Below are positions 28,433-42,157 of a DNA stretch of 64,000 bases, in pieces. Location of the stretch: the NCBI GenBank assembly GCA_963695545.1, contig OY968796.1, positions 992,001 to 1,056,000 of the forward strand, given 5' to 3'. How positions within the stretch are numbered: the stretch's first letter is position 1; each line of letters begins with the position of its first letter. The notes under the pieces are model-generated. The model was given only the letters and a program-made list of their open reading frames with translations. It was not told the origin of the DNA and made no database searches. The translations under genes and the position numbers were made by a program. Source of the stretch: Terriglobia bacterium. GTDB taxonomy: Bacteria; Acidobacteriota; Terriglobia; Acidiferrales; UBA7541.

Positions 28433-29257
28433 TCACGCGCCGCCATTGGCGCGCAGGCGGGGGCCGAGGTCGTGGGCCCATCCGCGCAGGCGGGCCAGCG
28501 GCACAACTGAAATCTGTTTTTCTTCCAGCAGCGTCGCGACAAACCTATGGCGGCCGTCTTCGCGGGCCGGGTCGACTTCGGTGATCGCCGTGAATTCCGC
28601 GTGTTCGATGTGCGTGCGAATGGCATCGGCGGTGAAGGCCAGCACCTTGGCCTGGCCCGGATCGCGGCCCAGCGGCAGCGCCTGCACGAAGCCGCGCGTG
28701 CCGTTGCGCCGGTACGCGAAATCCATTCTCAAGGGATCGCCGGGATAGGTATAGTCCGCCACGCGCACACTGCGCTCGATGCGGCCGAGCAATCCCTCGA
28801 GGCGCAGAAAATCCGCGGCGCGCGCGCGTATATCGCTACGCGTGCGGATCTCGCGCACGTCCGGGCGGCCCGGGCGCGGCGGCTCGACTTGCTCGCGATA
28901 GATGCGATCAAGTTCGGCCTCGAAGTCGCCGGTCAGCACGCCGCGGCGCGGGCTCAACTGGATGGTGTTGGACAAGGTTTCCTCGAGTTTGCCGAGCCAT
29001 GCGAGGCCGTTCGCGCGGTCGCCGTTGCGCGGCGCATCGAACACGCCGCCCAGGTTTCGCAAAAAATCCTCGTCGGCCGTGGGGTGCAGCCGGCGGACGC
29101 GGGCAAATTCTCCGGGCTCTTCCACCAGGCGGCGCGCGACGCGGCCCGAAGTGGGATCGAAGAGCACCACGCCGATATTGATCCACTCGTCGCGGACCAA
29201 ATTCGGCGCGTAGCGAACGATGTGGTACGCGCAACTTTGCAGTTCAGTTTCGGCCAT
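28433..29257 (-). CDS. DUF3037 domain protein
   Basis: YHIVRYAPNLVRDEWINIGVVL; lies directly downstream of a HipA-like kinase. Confidence 0.85.
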   Translation of the reverse strand: MAETELQSCAYHIVRYAPNLVRDEWINIGVVLFDPTSGRVARRLVEEPGEFARVRRLHPTADEDFLRNLGGVFDAPRNGDRANGLAWLGKLEETLSNTIQLSPRRGVLTGDFEAELDRIYREQVEPPRPGRPDVREIRTRSDIRARAADFLRLEGLLGRIERSVRVADYTYPGDPLRMDFAYRRNGTRGFVQALPLGRDPGQAKVLAFTADAIRTHIEHAEFTAITEVDPAREDGRHRFVATLLEEKQISVVPLARLRGWAHDLGPRLRANGGA

Positions 29258-29307
29258 GATTTATTTCCCTTCGTTCCATATTCGGAAACATTCGTCGAGC
29301 ACCATAA

Positions 29308-30105
29308 TTACTTCCAATTTGGAAACGGTTGCCGGTTCGAGTCCCGAGCTGCAACCAGCAACTCCCGCACGCGGCCGCGGCGCTGATACAAACGCTCGAG
29401 CAGTTCTTCGAGCGCCGCGGCGTCGTCCTGATACCACTCGGGCGGAATACGCTCGGCGGCTTCGCCGAGCGCCGCGCGCGTGATGCGATGTTCGAGACGC
29501 CCGAGCCAGGGCTCAAACGATTCAAGCCCGGTGACGCGCTCGTAGACGCGCTGCCGCGCGTAAAGCCCGCGCAGAGGCGCGTCCGGAAAATTCCATTCCC
29601 CGGCGTTGAAGCAGAAGCCCTGATCGATCATCAGGGCCTGATAGCGAGAGCGGCCGGCCTCGCGAAAAAAAACAGCTTGGCGGCCATTGGTGTTGCAGGA
29701 CCATTTATCGAACACCAGCATGCCGCAGAAAACCTCAAGGTCTTCGATCTCGACGAGCTGCTCGTCCGGCAAATAATCGTACACACTGACTTCGGCCGGA
29801 TGGCCCGGATACTGCGAGCCGAATTGCCGGCCGGGCTTGCAAGCCACGCGTCCGGTGGCGAACTGCATCACCAGATCGGCCGTATTCTCCACCAGTTCCG
29901 GCGAGACTTCGACGACGGTAACCGGCGGAACGGGCAGGCCGAGGCGCGCGGCAAGACGAGTGGCAAGCATTTCATTCGCCAAAATTCGCAGATGCTGAGG
30001 GTTGTTTTGGAACTTGACGACGTAGTAGGCGCCGTCCCGGCAGCGGAATAGATGGGACTGCGCGCCGCCGCGCATTCTGCGCAAATGTTCGAGCGCCTGG
30101 AGCAT
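29308..30105 (-). CDS. HipA-like (HipA_2) kinase
   Basis: MRGGAQSHL, YVVKF, LANEMLA, FDKW..N, IDQG, IPPEW. Confidence 0.85.
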   Translation of the reverse strand: MLQALEHLRRMRGGAQSHLFRCRDGAYYVVKFQNNPQHLRILANEMLATRLAARLGLPVPPVTVVEVSPELVENTADLVMQFATGRVACKPGRQFGSQYPGHPAEVSVYDYLPDEQLVEIEDLEVFCGMLVFDKWSCNTNGRQAVFFREAGRSRYQALMIDQGFCFNAGEWNFPDAPLRGLYARQRVYERVTGLESFEPWLGRLEHRITRAALGEAAERIPPEWYQDDAAALEELLERLYQRRGRVRELLVAARDSNRQPFPNWK

Positions 30106-30308
30106 TGGCGCGTATGCTATGGTGCCGCGGAAGTACCAGCAAGGGATTATTTGCGGCGCGATGCCGACCATAACCGGTAAAGGGAAACGCGCCTGCCCAA
30201 ATTGGCTCCGCAAGATCGTTGCGCGAGCGCCGCTCGCCGCGGCGGTGGGCCATCGCTCCAAGCCATAAGCGAATTGCGCGTATTAGCTTTACGTCATAAG
30301 CTCTCCCG

Positions 30309-31055
30309 GTGGGATTTGTCTCCACATCCGAAGCACTTCGCCGGGAAGTCGCGCGCCGCATCGAGGCCGGCGAACTGACCGGCACCGAGCTTGCGCGCCG
30401 CGCCGGCTTCACGCAGGCGCACATCTCGAATTTTCTGAATCGCAAGCGCGGCCTGAAGCCCGCGGCCATGGACCGCGTTCTGAAAGCCATGGGCGTGACC
30501 ATCTACGATTTACTGGACCCGACCGAAGTGGCGCGCCGCGCCGCTGCGCGCGAAATCGCCGAACCCATCGGGGAGATCGATGCCGCGGCGATCGAAGTTC
30601 AAATTCCGGTGGTCGGCGCGGATGCCGCGGCGACCGCGGTGATACTTGAATCCGACGTGCGTGGCCGCGCGAAGTACGCAGGACTTTTTCTCGAGCGGCT
30701 TCGCGAGGATTGTCCGCCCGCGCGCCGAGCCTGGACGCGCTTCATCGCGATCGAAGCGAGCGCAGCCGATGCGGCCGCGATGTGGCCGCGACTCACCGCC
30801 GGCGCTGAGTTGCTGATCGACCGGCACTGGACCGCGCTTGACGCTTACCGCAAGGGACGACGCAATCTTTACGCGGTGCGCAAGCAGGCAGCGATTCTGG
30901 TGCGCTACGTGGAGCGCGCGGGAGACCGCCTGGTATTGCGGCCGCACAATCCGGAATCTGACGCGGAGATATTTCCGCTGCCGGCTTTCGCAGAGGGATG
31001 GACGCCAAAGGATTTTATAGTCGGGCGCGTGGCGCACATCGGCAGCGAAATTTGA
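30309..31055 (+). CDS. XRE HTH + S24 (LexA/CI-like) regulator
   Basis: TGTELARRAGFTQAHISNFLN HTH; AMWPRL...LLID...LRPHNP...IVGRV. Confidence 0.75.
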   Translation: MGFVSTSEALRREVARRIEAGELTGTELARRAGFTQAHISNFLNRKRGLKPAAMDRVLKAMGVTIYDLLDPTEVARRAAAREIAEPIGEIDAAAIEVQIPVVGADAAATAVILESDVRGRAKYAGLFLERLREDCPPARRAWTRFIAIEASAADAAAMWPRLTAGAELLIDRHWTALDAYRKGRRNLYAVRKQAAILVRYVERAGDRLVLRPHNPESDAEIFPLPAFAEGWTPKDFIVGRVAHIGSEI

Positions 31056-35905: not shown

Positions 35906-36028
35906 CTTCACCTCGCGCCGATCGCCAGCCTCACGACCGATTTTTTGGATTCGAGCTTCATAGAGTCGCTTCGCGAGATCATCCCGCTCCACGGTGACAA
36001 CGTTGGGTCGTTTTGTTAGAGTCGGCCG

Positions 36029-37414
36029 ATGATTTCGACGGAAACCTATTTTTGGGACGACCTTTTGCCGCTTATCGAAGATGGCCAGGTCGTGCCGATT
36101 GTGGGCCGTGACCTCCTCGAAATGGCTCCCCAGCAGTTCTTTCACCGCATGGTGGCGGAACAACTGGCTGCGGAGCTGAAGATTCCGAGCGATCGCCTCC
36201 CGCCGAACTTCGAGACCAATGACGTGGTCTGCGCCTTCGCCGATTTTCACGGCGATTCGCTGGCCGTCAGACCGCAACTGATTTTGCGCATTCTCAGCAA
36301 GCTGAAACCTCCTGATCCGTCGGCGCTGCCCGAGGCGCTCCGGCTGCTCGCGGAAATTCCCGAGTTCCATTTGTTCATCAGCACCACGTTCGACACGCTT
36401 CTTGAAGAAGCCATCGAGTCCGTGCGCAAACGCAAGCCCGCGGTCGTCTCCTTTCCTCCTTCGTCGAGCAACATCGATTTTGACGAGGCGCTCCTCGATC
36501 AATCGGGCAGCATGGTCTTTCAGGTTCTTGGCCGCGCTTCGGTTTCATCGACGTTCGCGATGACCGAAGGACAGATGCTCGAGCAGATGCACGATTTCAT
36601 GGCCGGCGAGGGACGTCCGAAGAAATTGATCGCCAAGCTGCAGCAAAGCCATTTGCTGATTCTTGGCGTGGACTTCCCCGATTGGCTGGCGCGCTTTCTC
36701 TTGCGGCTGACCCGCTCGAAGCCCTTGTGGGATTCCCGCAACTTCATGGAATTCATTGCCGACGCCCGCTGCATGCAGCCGGGCTTCGCGCAATTTCTCG
36801 AGCGCTTCAGCCCGCTCCGCTCCCATCTTTACACCGACGGAACTCCCACGGATTTTGTGCGCGAATTGCACCGCCGCCGGTTTGAGCGGCATCCCGCAAC
36901 GGAAGCGCCGGTGGTGAATACGACCATCGATCCCGAGAAGCCGTCGGTGATGGCGCCCGGATCGATTTTCGTCAGTTATGCCAGCGAAGATAGAAAAGCC
37001 GCTTTCCAGCTGGCCGACGAGCTTAGCCAGGCGGGTTTGGAAGTGTGGATCGATCGCCGTCTGCGGCCCGGCGACAATTTCCGCGACGTCATCGAGAGCA
37101 ACATTCGCTTGTGCTCGGCGTTTGTAGGCGTGGTCTCGCGCAACACCCAGGACGATTCCGGCGAAGGGCGATGGTTCCGCAAGGAACGCGAGCAGGCCGT
37201 CGGAAGGGCGGGCTTCTGGTACGGCACGGACCGCAGATTTTTGTTTCCGGTTGTGGTGGACAACACGCCGAACAGCGAACTGATGGAATACCGCAAGCAA
37301 ACTTTCGGTGAGCGCAGCGCGGCGAGAGCCGTGGATGGCCGAGTGCCGCCGGAATTGATCCAGGAACTTGACGCCGCACAAAAAGCCTACCGGCGCAATC
37401 CACCCGTCGCATGA
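36029..37414 (+). CDS. SIR2-like + C-terminal TIR domain protein
   Basis: VVPIVG, FISTTFD, LLILGVDFPDW; TIR motifs IFVSYASED, VWID, WFRKE, FLFPVVVD. Confidence 0.8.
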   Translation: MISTETYFWDDLLPLIEDGQVVPIVGRDLLEMAPQQFFHRMVAEQLAAELKIPSDRLPPNFETNDVVCAFADFHGDSLAVRPQLILRILSKLKPPDPSALPEALRLLAEIPEFHLFISTTFDTLLEEAIESVRKRKPAVVSFPPSSSNIDFDEALLDQSGSMVFQVLGRASVSSTFAMTEGQMLEQMHDFMAGEGRPKKLIAKLQQSHLLILGVDFPDWLARFLLRLTRSKPLWDSRNFMEFIADARCMQPGFAQFLERFSPLRSHLYTDGTPTDFVRELHRRRFERHPATEAPVVNTTIDPEKPSVMAPGSIFVSYASEDRKAAFQLADELSQAGLEVWIDRRLRPGDNFRDVIESNIRLCSAFVGVVSRNTQDDSGEGRWFRKEREQAVGRAGFWYGTDRRFLFPVVVDNTPNSELMEYRKQTFGERSAARAVDGRVPPELIQELDAAQKAYRRNPPVA

Positions 37415-40400
37415 GTGCCGCCATGGCACCTTCGTCGGAACTCACGAAACAGAATCCCTGGCCTGGACTGCGCGCGTTCGGAGAGAACGATCGTGATTTC
37501 TTTTTCGGCCGGGAACGCGAGACCGCAGAACTGCTCGGTCTGGTACAGCGCTCGCCTGTGGTCGTGCTCTACGGCCAATCTGGCCTTGGCAAAACGTCGC
37601 TGCTGCAAGCCGGTTTATTTCCAAGACTGAAGGAGCTCAACTATCTGCCGTTCCGCGTGCGCTTCGATCACGGGGACGACGCCCTTCCCCTGGACCGGCA
37701 AATCACGTTGGCGGTCGCCGCGGAACTCGATCGCGCGCAAATTTCGGGGCCGCGGCCGGCCGAGGGCGAAACGCTCTGGGAATATTTTCACCGCACTGAC
37801 CTCGATTTCTGGGGGCCACGCAATCGTCTGCTCACGCCGGTGATCGTGCTCGATCAGTTTGAAGAAGTCTTCACGCTTGGCCATCGCAGCGAAAAATCTA
37901 CCGCCCGGGTGGCCGAATTCCAAAAGGAACTGGAGTCCGTGATCGAGCATCGACCTCCGGACGCCGTGCGCGAACGACTGGAAGCGCACCCGGATGACGC
38001 GCTCCGGTACGACCTGAAGAAGCAGGCGATAAAGTTCGTGATCACCCTGCGCGAGGATTTCCTGCCGGATCTCGATCCCTGGCGGGAGCGCATGCCTTCC
38101 CTGCTGCTGAATCGTTTTCGCCTGGAGCGCATGACCGGCAAGCAGGCGCTCGACGTGATCCTGCGCGGAGGCGGCGAACTTGTAGACCTTGCAGTGGCGC
38201 GCGACATTGTGGATTTCGTTTCCGCCTCGCGGCGCAAACGCTCCGCAAGAACGCTGGAAGAGCGCGAAGTGGAGCCCGCGCTCTTGAGCGTGGTTTGCGA
38301 CGCGCTCAATCTCAGCCGCATCGAGCACGGCAAGGCGCGCATCACGCCCGATCTGCTCACCGAGAAGCGCGAAGAGATCATCCAGGATTTTTACGAGCGC
38401 ACCTTCCAGGGCGTCGATCCGCGCGTGCGTGAGTGGGTCGAAGACCGCTTGCTCACCAGTACCGGCTTCCGCGATCGGGCCGCGCTCGACGACGCCAAAC
38501 GCCTGGGGCTGCCTGAATCCGATTTCGATTTGCTCGTCAATCGCCGCATTCTTCATCGCGAGGAGCGTGAGGGCGTCATCTGGCTGGAACTGACGCATGA
38601 TTTGCTCAGCGATCCAGCAGCGCGCAGCCGCGCGGTGCGCGAGCAGCGAATCCAGGCGGAAGCCGCGAAAGAACGTGAGAAAGCCGCCGCCGAGCGCGAA
38701 GCGCAAGTCCGGAGCAAACTGCGCAGAACTCAACTGGTGGTGGCCGTCTGCGGCGTGCTGCTGGTGATCGCCGCCGTGGCTCTTGACCGCGCGATCGTAG
38801 CCACGCGCAACGCGCGCGCTGCTGAATCCAAAGCGATCACGGCGCAAACGGTTGCCGTGCAAGCGCAAGCCAGCAGCGAAGCCAGTTATGGGTCCGCTCT
38901 TGAAATGACCAACAGAATGGAATCGAGCATCGATGATTCGGGGATTCCCGCAGCGACGGTGATCAAAGATATTGACGACGTGGAACGCACGTACACGCGT
39001 GTTGCGAACCAAGTGACTTCGTCTGATCTGGCGCAGTTTGAATTGCAGCACGCTCAATTCCTCACCAAAGCCGCCGACGCCTATTACCGCATCGGATACT
39101 TGAAACAGGGACTCGCCGAATCGCAGCAAGCACTCGATCTCCTCGAGAAAATCAGCGGATCGGATGTCGCCGGAGATGTGCGCCTCGCGCGCGCAGCGGC
39201 GCTTTACGATCGAGGCCACGGTTTGCAAGTAATCGGCCAGCTCGACGCGGCGCGCGCCAGCTACGAGGACGCCATCAAGTCCGCCATGCCGACACAATCG
39301 CCCGAATCAAGGCAGGCCGCCCTCCGCGTGAACGTGTTGTCGCGAATCGGTCTTGCCGACCTCGACGAACAGATTTGGTCGTACTCCGCGGCGCACACCC
39401 ACCTGCGGGATGCAATCGACATAATTAGAGCGGTGAATACGAATGCATCCGACGCGGACGCGAACGAAGTTCGTTCGTGGAACGCTTTGGCCGAGCAGGG
39501 CCTGGGCATGACTCTGACGCCGGATCCCGAGTCGCGGCAGCATTCGGCCGATGCGGCGGCTCTCATCAGGGGATTGATGGCCAGCGACCCACAAAATCTC
39601 CACTGGAAGCGAATGTTCGCTCACGTCGCGTATGTGCAGGGCATGGCCACCATGAGTCTTGGGCGGCTTGACGAGGCCGAGCCATTACTCGAACAGTCGC
39701 TATCGATCAGCGAAGATCTTTGCAGCCGCGATCCGTTGAATCTCGATTGGCGTTTGGGATTGCTCGAAGGCCACCTGGGGCTGGGTTCGGTCCAGCAAAG
39801 CAGCGGCGAGTGGGATTTATCGCAAGAGGAGTTGACCAAGGCCCAATCCGAAGCGCCGGAATTGACCGACGCGCAGCCCAGCTGGACCCAGGCGATCCTG
39901 GATACCAGCGTCGTCGATCTTGTGCTCGGCAACGTGCTCACTTCCAAATACGGCGACGAATCCGACTCCAAACAAAAAGCTCTCCTGTTGCAGGACGCAT
40001 CCTCCTTGTTCGCGAAGGCGCGCGAATGGTCGGAGAAAGGCATGCGACTCGCACCGGAGAACATGTACTTCGTCGAGTTCGCTACCGGGCCCATCGGACG
40101 CCAGGGATTGGTCCTCGCATACCAGGGCGCGGCGCTGGACACGTCCGTCAAGGGAAATCAAGAAGAGAAGAACCAGAAAGAAACCGAAGCTCTCAAATAT
40201 TACGCCGACGCTCAGGAAAAATTCCGGCCCGTCGAGCGCGTGGCCAAAGACGAACCCAGGACTCTTTCTGACGAAGCGTATCTCCATTTCTGGATGGGCA
40301 ACGCGTTGACGGCGCTTTCCAGGACAAGCGATGCGGTCTCCGCATACCAACAGATGGCTGCTTCGGCCAAGCGCTTGGTCGAACGGAATCCCGTCGGCGA

Positions 40401-42099
40401 AAGTTACAGCGTCCTTTCGGCTGCCTACACCAACGTCGGCGCCGCCTGCGCCACCGAAAACAAACCGGACGACGCTGCCGCGAACGATCTCCTCGCCGAA
40501 GATGCGATTCGCCACGCCCTGCTCTTGAAGCCGGGGAACACCGGTTACCACGCTCAGGAAGCCCAGATTCAAATCCAACTCTTCGAGATTGCGTTTCAGC
40601 GCAATGATTTTGCGGCGGCTCTCGATGCGCTCGATCGGGGAGTTTCCACTTCCCTGGCCGCGCTGAAAACCGATTATTCGGACCCGCGACTCAATCAAGA
40701 CGTCGTCTATTTCAAAAAGCAATTGGGAATCGTTCAGACCGCGCTTCAGACCACGCGTCCGCCGGAAGGACCGGGAGCGGCACAAGGCCATTTGTCGTCG
40801 GAGCAATCGGCGATACTCCTGCAGAAAATCAAAGATCTGTTGGCCGAGACTGCTCCCGACAAGCTGCTCAATCACAATTCACGGCAAGCCGATTGGACTC
40901 TGCGTCCGCTGATCCCCGGCGCGTGGCAGTATCTCGCCGATGCGGATCGTGAAGCGGCGGTCGCGAGCCTGCTGACCCTCGACAAAAATCTGAAAGCGGA
41001 GCAAGTGTGGGGCATTCGCAAGCTTCCCCTCGACTTTTACGATGATGTGACGTTGTACGAAGCGCAAGTCGTCTTGCCGGACGGAACCCACGGAATCTCC
41101 GGCTTCTTGCAGCAGGGGAAGAAACCGCCGCTTCCGGTGGATTCTTCGGGAAGCCAGATCCAAACGCTGAACGCGGAATCACAATTAAAATTGGACAACG
41201 CTTCTCGCGCGGCGGATTACATGCGCTTTTGCGTGAGCATGTTTCAAGGTGACGGTGGATTGATCCATCCGCTCGACGAGCCAGACGATATCAGTTGGCG
41301 GCCCGAGGCCACGGCCCAGCAGCGCGAGAGCGTCGTCGCGTTGATCTCGCCGCTGGTCGCCGAGCCGGTTTCCGATCGCGGTTGGCAAGCGATCGCGACG
41401 GTTCAATTCAACGGCTATCTGAGCAAAATCAGCATTCACCTTTCGCGCTTTGGCGGCTTCCAATTTTTCAACGGAGATCGCGTGACCCAGCGGCTCCCCG
41501 TCAATGTAGAGGTCTTCGACAATGGCCTGCGCGTGCCGCGTACACTGGAAGAAGTCGATAAGCAAACCTGGCAGGGACAGGTCGCGCAGCTCACGCAGAA
41601 GCTCAAGGCCAATCCGAATGACGAGACCGCTCTCTCGCAACTGCCCGGCTTCTACTATGACTTAGCGCGCTGGAACGACGCCGTGGATGCGCAAAAGAAA
41701 TGGCTGGCCTTCGTTCAGAACGAGCCCAAGCATGACGCTGCCTGGACCGCGCAATTGAATCTGGCCTATCGGTATCTCGCGCTGTACCAGCTGTTTATTC
41801 GTGACTTCGCGGGATCACTGGCTTCCAACGACGAGGCAAGAAAGCTGGACAGCTCCGCCCTCGGGATGGAACTGACCCGTGCGGAGGCTCTGGTTTTTCT
41901 CGGGCACACGTCGGAAGCAGAGGTCATCTTCCTCGGGCATCGCGGCGAGAAAATGATCCCGAGTGACCCCAATTCATCGACCTGGGAAAATCAGGTCAAC
42001 CTGAATTTCGACGCGCTGCAAAAGGCAGGGATCATCACACCGGATATGGCCCCCGAAATCGCTCACATTCGCGAACTTTTGAAGACGCCGGCGAAATAA
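37411..42099 (+). CDS. nSTAND1-type NTPase-coiled coil-TM-TPR protein
   Basis: NPWPGLRAF..FFGRERE, GQSGLGKTS, VLDQFEE, LREDF, ELTHD; TM at ~38734-38784; long TPR-like region. Confidence 0.85.
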   Translation: MSAAMAPSSELTKQNPWPGLRAFGENDRDFFFGRERETAELLGLVQRSPVVVLYGQSGLGKTSLLQAGLFPRLKELNYLPFRVRFDHGDDALPLDRQITLAVAAELDRAQISGPRPAEGETLWEYFHRTDLDFWGPRNRLLTPVIVLDQFEEVFTLGHRSEKSTARVAEFQKELESVIEHRPPDAVRERLEAHPDDALRYDLKKQAIKFVITLREDFLPDLDPWRERMPSLLLNRFRLERMTGKQALDVILRGGGELVDLAVARDIVDFVSASRRKRSARTLEEREVEPALLSVVCDALNLSRIEHGKARITPDLLTEKREEIIQDFYERTFQGVDPRVREWVEDRLLTSTGFRDRAALDDAKRLGLPESDFDLLVNRRILHREEREGVIWLELTHDLLSDPAARSRAVREQRIQAEAAKEREKAAAEREAQVRSKLRRTQLVVAVCGVLLVIAAVALDRAIVATRNARAAESKAITAQTVAVQAQASSEASYGSALEMTNRMESSIDDSGIPAATVIKDIDDVERTYTRVANQVTSSDLAQFELQHAQFLTKAADAYYRIGYLKQGLAESQQALDLLEKISGSDVAGDVRLARAAALYDRGHGLQVIGQLDAARASYEDAIKSAMPTQSPESRQAALRVNVLSRIGLADLDEQIWSYSAAHTHLRDAIDIIRAVNTNASDADANEVRSWNALAEQGLGMTLTPDPESRQHSADAAALIRGLMASDPQNLHWKRMFAHVAYVQGMATMSLGRLDEAEPLLEQSLSISEDLCSRDPLNLDWRLGLLEGHLGLGSVQQSSGEWDLSQEELTKAQSEAPELTDAQPSWTQAILDTSVVDLVLGNVLTSKYGDESDSKQKALLLQDASSLFAKAREWSEKGMRLAPENMYFVEFATGPIGRQGLVLAYQGAALDTSVKGNQEEKNQKETEALKYYADAQEKFRPVERVAKDEPRTLSDEAYLHFWMGNALTALSRTSDAVSAYQQMAASAKRLVERNPVGESYSVLSAAYTNVGAACATENKPDDAAANDLLAEDAIRHALLLKPGNTGYHAQEAQIQIQLFEIAFQRNDFAAALDALDRGVSTSLAALKTDYSDPRLNQDVVYFKKQLGIVQTALQTTRPPEGPGAAQGHLSSEQSAILLQKIKDLLAETAPDKLLNHNSRQADWTLRPLIPGAWQYLADADREAAVASLLTLDKNLKAEQVWGIRKLPLDFYDDVTLYEAQVVLPDGTHGISGFLQQGKKPPLPVDSSGSQIQTLNAESQLKLDNASRAADYMRFCVSMFQGDGGLIHPLDEPDDISWRPEATAQQRESVVALISPLVAEPVSDRGWQAIATVQFNGYLSKISIHLSRFGGFQFFNGDRVTQRLPVNVEVFDNGLRVPRTLEEVDKQTWQGQVAQLTQKLKANPNDETALSQLPGFYYDLARWNDAVDAQKKWLAFVQNEPKHDAAWTAQLNLAYRYLALYQLFIRDFAGSLASNDEARKLDSSALGMELTRAEALVFLGHTSEAEVIFLGHRGEKMIPSDPNSSTWENQVNLNFDALQKAGIITPDMAPEIAHIRELLKTPAK

Positions 42100-42157
42100 A
42101 TCCGTTTCGATGAAAGCGTGAAATCGCAGCCGCGTTCGTTCCGACTTCCAGCCGCCG

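Follow-up and report, generated by a model that had tools for sequence, protein, structure and literature searches.

A pair of overlapping genes on the forward strand of a 64,000-nt stretch of Terriglobia DNA (contig OY968796.1; hereafter the window) may encode a split, membrane-spanning receptor that resembles nucleotide-binding leucine-rich repeat (NLR) proteins and combines a Toll-type logic with a Thoeris-type second messenger, a reading to which we give barely better than an even chance. According to the list of open reading frames (ORFs) and Pfam, gene 1 (36029-37414, +; 461 amino acids (aa)) carries a pseudo-SIR2 domain followed by a C-terminal TIR domain, and gene 2 (37411-42099, +; 1562 aa) is composed of an nSTAND1 NTPase, one predicted transmembrane (TM) helix and a TPR tail into which an unnamed domain is inserted. 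The pair is conserved and apparently uncharacterised; its parts are all of known kinds and it is their arrangement that appears to be new. Judged from its sequence, the pair looks like a variant form of innate immunity in bacteria, with sensing outside the cytoplasm.

Gene 1 and gene 2 form a conserved unit

The stop codon of gene 1 and the start codon of gene 2 overlap in the tetranucleotide ATGA (37411-37414, +), indicating translational coupling; this overlap, reported in an earlier reading of the stretch (the original prediction), is borne out by the ORFs and the window sequence. Scans of genome and metagenome contigs yielded 137 loci, which became 128, including duplicates across collections, after 10 TIR-only matches (L052-L061) had been removed and the window had been added. 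Wherever at least 300 nt of DNA lie downstream of gene 1, the next gene is an nSTAND1 gene (112/112 loci), i.e. the linkage of the pair is conserved, as had been anticipated. At the 115 linked loci the gene 1 stop reads ATGA in 80, GTGA or TTGA in 15 and differently in 18, and the remaining two (L009, L019) are single ORFs. For these two, a cis fusion of complete gene 1 with the STAND gene was rejected, as the end of gene 1 is out of frame in each, and a search of longer proteins, which is weak evidence, found no full fusion, the matches being two TIR-TPR proteins. The distances of gene 1 and of the STAND gene correlate (Spearman 0.87), to which no weight is given as adjacent genes do so anyway.

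Gene 1 combines a degenerate sirtuin fold with an apparently active TIR domain

Both domains originally assigned to gene 1 were recovered: the Pfam family SIR2_2 matches aa 115-226 (27.2 bits, cut-off 24.5) and TIR_2 matches aa 313-414 (65.2 bits, cut-off 28), and the AlphaFold2 model (predicted local distance difference test score (pLDDT) 84.6) shows two domains joined by a disordered linker (aa 291-304). The N-terminal domain (36029-36898, +; aa ~1-290) is defined by Foldseek and by profile alignment to ThsA. Top Foldseek matches of the gene 1 model are ThsA, Avs5 and KomC, with E 3.5e-9 to EcThsA, and the profile of the domain matches BcThsA with E 1.3e-6. In the TIR domain (36959-37393, +; aa ~311-455) Glu386 (codon 37184-37186), part of the predicted motif WFRKE, occupies the catalytic position. 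It is aligned with the Glu of GVLKE in the SPARTA TIR, which we take to be catalytic, and the best PDB sequence matches of this domain are the SPARTA and AbTir NADases.

What did not hold is the proposed role of the SIR2 domain as NADase effector. In the profile alignment TTNYD of ThsA falls on STTFD of gene 1 and KMHG on QVLG, so that T120 and L167 occupy the positions of ThsA N112 and H152, presumably the catalytic residues; PDB entry 8bto carries TTAYD where ThsA has TTNYD. Among 100 distinct gene 1 homologues the catalytic Asn and the catalytic His are each present in none (0/100), and the GxG of the SIR2 GAG loop reads Gx[DE] in 99, whereas E386 of the TIR domain is kept in 100/100. An active SIR2 NADase in gene 1 was rejected on these counts and on the ThsA alignment: by its conservation pattern the SIR2 domain is a pseudo-enzyme, and the TIR domain looks active.

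Gene context suggests that the SIR2-like domain is most likely a docking adaptor onto the STAND module. A standalone SIR2_2 query matched 4 of the 401 genomes of a phylum sample, and in 4/4 an effector-less nSTAND1 gene lies directly behind. Three of these genomes have standalone ~300-aa SIR2 genes without TIR, with motifs intact in all but one His-to-Tyr copy, and in the fourth a CHAT protease is fused to a degenerate SIR2 domain. Since the order SIR2-then-STAND is constant across the four genomes while the cargo varies, the SIR2 fold would be the STAND-facing part. The loci with SIR2 before nSTAND1 are L170:6920-8847 (a tandem pair), L171:7530-8471, L174 and L175:10-2184; a TM helix is shown for two of the four STANDs, the other two loci being too short. 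A predicted complex of gene 1 and the STAND module (paired 64-row alignments, without controls) reached a best score of 0.27 against a mark of 0.32 and is given no weight for or against docking. A homotypic effector-associated domain (EAD) on both proteins was not found, as there is no space for it before the STAND module and the SIR2-like profile had no match to the STAND ORFs.

Gene 2 carries a STAND switch, a predicted membrane helix and a variable tail

In agreement with the original prediction, gene 2 begins at the STAND NTPase (aa ~13-16) and has no effector or adaptor domain ahead of it. The nSTAND1 (PF20703) match starts at aa 16 (104.1 bits, cut-off 27.1), and the module (37447-38640, +; aa ~13-410) contains a Walker A motif (GQSGLGKT, aa 55-62) exactly where it had been placed (37573-37596, +), a Walker B motif (VIVLDQFEE, 37840-37866, +), R214 and H396-D397, the last two of which we take to be the equivalents of the sensor Arg and the MHD motif. 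K61, D148, E151, E152 and R214 are present in 87/87 distinct partners, H396 in 86 and D397 in 85; by these motifs the NTPase is an intact switch.

A charged stretch of Ala, Glu, Arg and Lys (aa ~411-439) is followed, immediately after KLRR, by the best 19-residue window of the protein (aa 440-458; 38728-38784, +; Kyte-Doolittle 2.63), the predicted single TM helix, N-in and C-out. The helix, which the original prediction had already proposed, is called from hydropathy and conservation. An uncharged 19-residue window of at least 1.6 lies behind the STAND module in 77 of 80 distinct partners, its sequence varying and its hydropathy constant, and the three exceptions are a frame-shifted gene, a marginal value of 1.55 and L120. 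Lys and Arg are commoner before than after the helix in 70 of the 77 (means 4.7 vs 2.5). Because of the conserved helix and the positive-inside charge bias the STAND module is predicted to lie inside and the tail outside the cytoplasm.

The predicted extracytoplasmic tail (38785-42096, +; aa 459-1562) is TPR-like and diverges fast. Its earlier description as ~1100 aa of TPR-like sequence needs to be split: TPR matches in gene 2 are weak and under the Pfam cut-off, yet TPR is significant in 22 of 48 homologous tails scanned among 64 non-redundant ones, whereas aa ~1157-1384 form a separate, non-TPR domain. Of the other tails 9 are of the WD40 type, 4 RHS/MORN-like and 13 without assignment. The expected variability of the C-terminal sensor is thus seen both in the swapping of types and in tails diverging far faster than cores (identity to L071: gene 1 79%, STAND 74%, tail 32%). 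The terminal ~170-aa TPR unit (41581-42096, +) is present in three copies in some homologues (L008, L069, L071, L076, L085).

The unnamed ~230-aa domain (40879-41562, +; aa ~1157-1384) is conserved and mobile and may be a candidate ligand-binding module. It has no Pfam match, and its Atlas matches, at most 0.79, are to hypothetical proteins; it is found in 2112 protein clusters at E<=0.001. Elsewhere it occurs in TIR-TM-Sel1 and kinase-TM-Sel1 (Ser/Thr kinase) architectures and in signal-peptide proteins. Up to four copies per protein are found, with Sel1, ankyrin or TPR repeats, and the repeat units follow TIR, kinase, caspase or STAND domains (P0126-P0275).

A SLOG-SLATT protein, a patatin and a lipoprotein recur with the pair

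Clustering of neighbouring genes revealed a recurring 470-690-aa protein with an N-terminal SLOG domain and two SLATT units. The identity of the SLOG domain was not found by sequence, neither the PDB search nor the Pfam YpsA profile giving a match (Atlas lead 0.81). Its structural model (pLDDT 92.9) has PDB entry 2nx2 (YpsA) first in Foldseek and superimposes on YpsA with VIA Z 18.9 and a root-mean-square deviation of 2.4 over 154 residues; as modelled, it is a YpsA-type SLOG. Further recurrent neighbours are kinases (13 loci), TrkA-RyR proteins, a lipoprotein that belongs to no known family and a patatin that is related to the lipases of CBASS. Among the 41 well-flanked loci, which include the window and extend at least 3 kb to either side, SLOG-SLATT is found beside the pair in 22, the patatin in 15 and the lipoprotein in 13. 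SLOG-SLATT adjoins the pair on both sides and in both orientations, including the non-acidobacterial loci L038, L043 and L047. In distant phyla the surroundings of the pair repeatedly contain TrkA_N-RyR proteins and M48 peptidase/zinc-ribbon genes (L038, L043, L022, L020, L044).

In the source genome two lipoproteins, SLOG-SLATT and the patatin form one run (C1:2,777,500-2,783,608), 1.75 Mb from the pair. The run lies on one strand and is accompanied by a convergent gene for a 672-aa four-TM protein of no Pfam family (together C1:2,775,353-2,783,608; L142:7353-15608); at the corresponding position G048 and G074 lack this four-TM protein. In an order sample of 151 genomes SLOG-SLATT is present in 14, including 5/5 with gene 1, and is adjacent to the pair in the four besides the source genome. 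In 7 of the 9 SLOG-SLATT genomes without gene 1 it directly follows a different TIR gene, encoding a ~640-aa TIR protein in six and a TIR-nSTAND1-WD40 fusion in one. Two of the six ~640-aa proteins were scanned and contain TIR and DUF4185, with a hydrophobic helix between them seen by eye; the six genes lie directly upstream of SLOG-SLATT (L148:7186-9153, L149:11742-13697, L150-L153), and TIR-TM-DUF4185 plus SLOG-SLATT reads as a minimal two-gene transmembrane TIR receptor with its effector. The source genome also has a second nSTAND1 gene (C1:3,239,059-3,243,171; L144:7060-11172, -), encoding a 1370-aa TIR-nSTAND1-TM-WD40 fusion, whose G136 homologue is immediately followed by SLOG-SLATT and patatin. 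In a Thermoleophilaceae record another member of this SLOG family (L058:11565-12155) has an unrelated TIR gene next to it.

The original prediction described a two-gene system. The linkage of the pair stands, but with SLOG-SLATT, patatin and lipoprotein recurring beside it the two-gene reading is probably incomplete. As these companions recur with the pair and exist elsewhere in the source genome, second-messenger signalling by the TIR domain is favoured over direct depletion of NAD+, i.e. the TIR domain of gene 1 probably makes a signal rather than killing directly.

Distribution and surroundings of the pair

The nearest named relatives are Acidobacteriota records (78-89% identity), and the records that hold the loci include Acidobacteriota, Gemmatimonadota, Verrucomicrobiota, Gamma- and Betaproteobacteria, Hydrogenedentota and Clostridia. 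Within the order sample gene 1 is found in 5/151 genomes, and in 0/5 other genomes of the genus. In the same-genus genome G048 the DUF1345 and TlpA-like genes that here flank the pair are separated by 31 bp, showing that the pair is a clean 6.2-kb indel (35906-42153), and in G300 the pair occupies a different genomic context. A target-site duplication was not found at the indel ends, where the longest shared direct word is 6 nt, no gene 1 relatives were found in viral contigs, and no tRNA was found in the 64-kb window. The GC content of the pair is 0.59 vs 0.61 for the genome. The promoter/terminator scan found one promoter-like site (35994-36022) against 1.9 expected by chance and thus gives no evidence of a promoter; a look-up of RNA runs found none listed. 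About 6 kb upstream of the pair lie a HipA_2-like kinase and a DUF3037 gene (28433-30261, -) with a divergent HTH/S24-like regulator (30309-31055, +), genes that are toxin-antitoxin or defence-like.

Gene 2 matched none of the PADLOC and NCBIfam families (0), and gene 1 matches these profiles via its TIR domain, far under the cut-off. Among the Thoeris profiles, ThsB gives 13.8 bits (E 0.007) and ThcB4 26.2 bits against a cut-off of 220, i.e. gene 1 is not recognised as ThsB or ThcB. The statement of the original prediction that no characterised system is known to have this layout agrees with this lack of a match to any named system.

Discussion

Based on these findings we propose that gene 2 spans the inner membrane, the STAND ATPase facing the cytoplasm and the TPR tail the periplasm, as suggested by the conserved helix and the charge bias. 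A foreign or damage-related envelope cue would bind the variable tail and cluster the receptor, whereupon the STAND module, whose motifs are intact, would form an ATP-bound oligomer, as expected from STAND biology. The dead SIR2 domain of gene 1, as its gene context implies, may then dock on the STAND module and thereby cluster the attached TIR domains, which, given their conserved catalytic Glu, could convert NAD+ to an ADP-ribose (ADPR)-derived signal. Finally, the YpsA-fold SLOG domain may read this signal and the two fused SLATT units, each with two TM helices, may permeabilise the membrane; fold and co-occurrence of this protein are observed, its function is proposed. The patatin lipase and the lipoprotein would be frequent accessories of this effector, even though encoded at a distance in the source genome, and the outcome would probably be growth arrest or death limiting an invader.

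Several observations weigh against this mechanism. The neighbours of the pair are a DUF1345 gene and a TlpA-like gene, and there is no defence island within the window. SLOG-SLATT is not an obligate partner, being absent from 19/41 well-flanked loci, and in a phylum sample of 301 genomes no SLOG match was found, among 10 candidates scored per genome, in the 4 further genomes whose gene 1 match is strong; three of five genomes whose pair has no adjoining SLOG carry one elsewhere, only one of them strongly. Conversely, two same-genus genomes keep SLOG-SLATT without gene 1, and the source genome holds several further TIR genes (7 TIR_2 matches, the TIR-nSTAND1-TM-WD40 gene among them), each of which might be the one that serves its SLOG-SLATT. 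As for topology, partner L120 seems to have no helix, 16 of 69 STAND proteins with the tail domain have no window of at least 1.6, and the tail of L137 (12754-14046) carries post-TM TPR and FHA domains, the latter normally cytoplasmic and thus in conflict with a tail in the periplasm. Moreover, related genomes in all these counts are not independent.

A self-sufficient two-gene killer, rather unlikely in our view, has the first three steps in common with the mechanism proposed here, i.e. receptor and adaptor are the same, but the clustered TIR domains would deplete NAD+ as terminal effector and SLOG-SLATT would be co-travelling genes served by other TIRs. The loci at which the pair stands alone and the SLOG-free genomes of the phylum sample fit this view, as do the movement of the pair as a two-gene unit at this locus, the similarity of its TIR domain to NADases and the apparent terminal effectors (intact SIR2, CHAT) of the sister modules. 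It accounts less well for a SLOG-SLATT gene that recurs on either side and in either orientation, even outside the Acidobacteriota, and that, following the pattern of Thoeris, has some TIR gene beside it in 11 of the order sample's 13 other genomes.

It is distinctly improbable that the pair serves non-immune envelope signalling, in which the receptor would report contact, polysaccharide or envelope stress and the TIR product would tune ion flux or lipid remodelling without killing. Such a role would be compatible with the lack of a PADLOC or NCBIfam system match and of a viral homologue, with the tail domain occurring also behind Ser/Thr kinase-TM units and signal peptides, and with the kinases and TrkA-RyR proteins recurring near the pair; furthermore, in Lee 2026 (PMC12803255) 198 of 589 STAND clades are classed as defence-linked and the rest are not. 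Yet the patchy presence of the pair in order and genus, the fast turnover of the sensor and the SLATT, patatin, CHAT and SIR2 partners are typical of conflict systems. Very unlikely is a conventional NLR with a cytoplasmic tail whose effector has become a separate protein, the helix being buried or released upon activation rather than membrane-spanning at rest: the helix of gene 2 is short (~17-19 residues), is called from hydropathy and conservation, and TM-less STAND proteins as well as the FHA-bearing L137 share such tails, but an uncharged window in 77/80 partners with Arg/Lys in front is a signal-anchor signature and the same tail domain is found behind signal peptides and kinase-TM units.

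Returning to the membrane-spanning receptor, one may tentatively extend it to a prokaryotic Toll-like network, although we regard this extension as rather doubtful. Interchangeable membrane receptors, namely the split pseudo-SIR2-TIR/nSTAND1-TM-TPR pair, the fused TIR-nSTAND1-TM-WD40 protein and TIR-TM-DUF4185, would all sense threats outside the cytoplasm and would share one ADPR-derived messenger and one SLOG-SLATT pore that may be encoded anywhere. The sirtuin fold might then be a MyD88-like universal adaptor that brings TIR, a CHAT protease or its own active site as cargo onto effector-less STANDs.

In the accessible literature compared here, the STAND receptors characterised so far detect phage proteins inside the cell and have their effector in cis. 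If the proposed mechanism is true, a receptor reading the periplasm would allow a response to predators, contact toxins or envelope damage, or to genome injection while it takes place or even beforehand. The NLR/TIR parallel with animals and plants would also come to include cell-surface receptors, and a dead sirtuin as swappable adaptor would be a new role of that fold in bacteria. The link to SLOG-SLATT offers a readout that can be tested and may point to a new TIR messenger.

Comparison with known systems

The two-gene layout was not found in the accessible literature that was searched, which besides the sources cited here includes Kaur 2020 (PMC7159879) and Brzozowski 2019. The nSTAND1 counter-invader systems of Kaur 2021 (PMC8195603; PF20703), which names nSTAND1, share with the pair the NTPase clade, a predicted conflict role and an effector supplied by a neighbouring gene, as in the described gene pair of bDLD3-STAND-FGS and bDLD3-TIR. 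In these systems both proteins have a homotypic EAD, whereas in the pair no domain precedes the NTPase of gene 2, a dead sirtuin is the candidate adaptor, and ATPase and sensor are separated by a TM helix; the layout of the pair was not found in the accessible part of that paper.

Avs/AVAST, TIR-NLR and bNACHT proteins, including the SIR2-STAND protein Avs5, likewise combine STAND, a TPR/WD40 sensor and a TIR or SIR2 domain processing NAD+ (Rousset 2022, PMC9122126; Kibby 2022, 10.1101/2022.07.19.500537; Lee 2026). Their characterised members are single cytoplasmic chains with the effector in cis, whereas here the effector is on a separate gene, and Avs-type sensors bind phage protein in the cytoplasm, whereas the helix of gene 2 predicts the opposite location of the tail. 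Sensing of membrane or periplasmic signals has been predicted for NACHTs with multiple C-terminal TM regions (Kibby 2022), and a periplasmic CLec on a NACHT target has been predicted as well (Dore 2023, 10.1101/2023.09.22.558884); neither has the two-gene layout of the pair.

With Thoeris type I (ThsB TIR plus ThsA SIR2-SLOG) and type VII the pair shares a TIR domain with catalytic Glu, a ThsA-like SIR2 fold and SLOG plus SLATT nearby. Type VII consists of a TIR and the SLATT effector ThsH and uses cyclic ADPR (cADPR), according to a Thoeris survey that discarded TIRs within Avs proteins (10.64898/2025.12.03.692087), and cADPR sensing has been assigned to the YpsA-like SLOG (Iyer 2022, PMC9503650). 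The pair differs from Thoeris in that its TIR shares one chain with a dead SIR2 domain, in the YpsA-type SLOG that is fused to a pair of SLATT units, and in sensing, which would fall to a membrane STAND receptor. The effector in the operon, a Thoeris trait, is absent at this locus and unlinked in the source genome, although adjoining in the 22 well-flanked loci given above.

The pair also invites comparison with eukaryotic receptors. Animal Toll-like receptors have a repeat sensor outside, one TM helix and a TIR inside that is recruited via an adaptor, and in plant TIR-NLRs STAND-driven clustering of TIR makes an ADPR signal. The pair has no leucine-rich repeats and its homology is limited to the TIR and STAND folds, so that the likeness to both is one of analogy.

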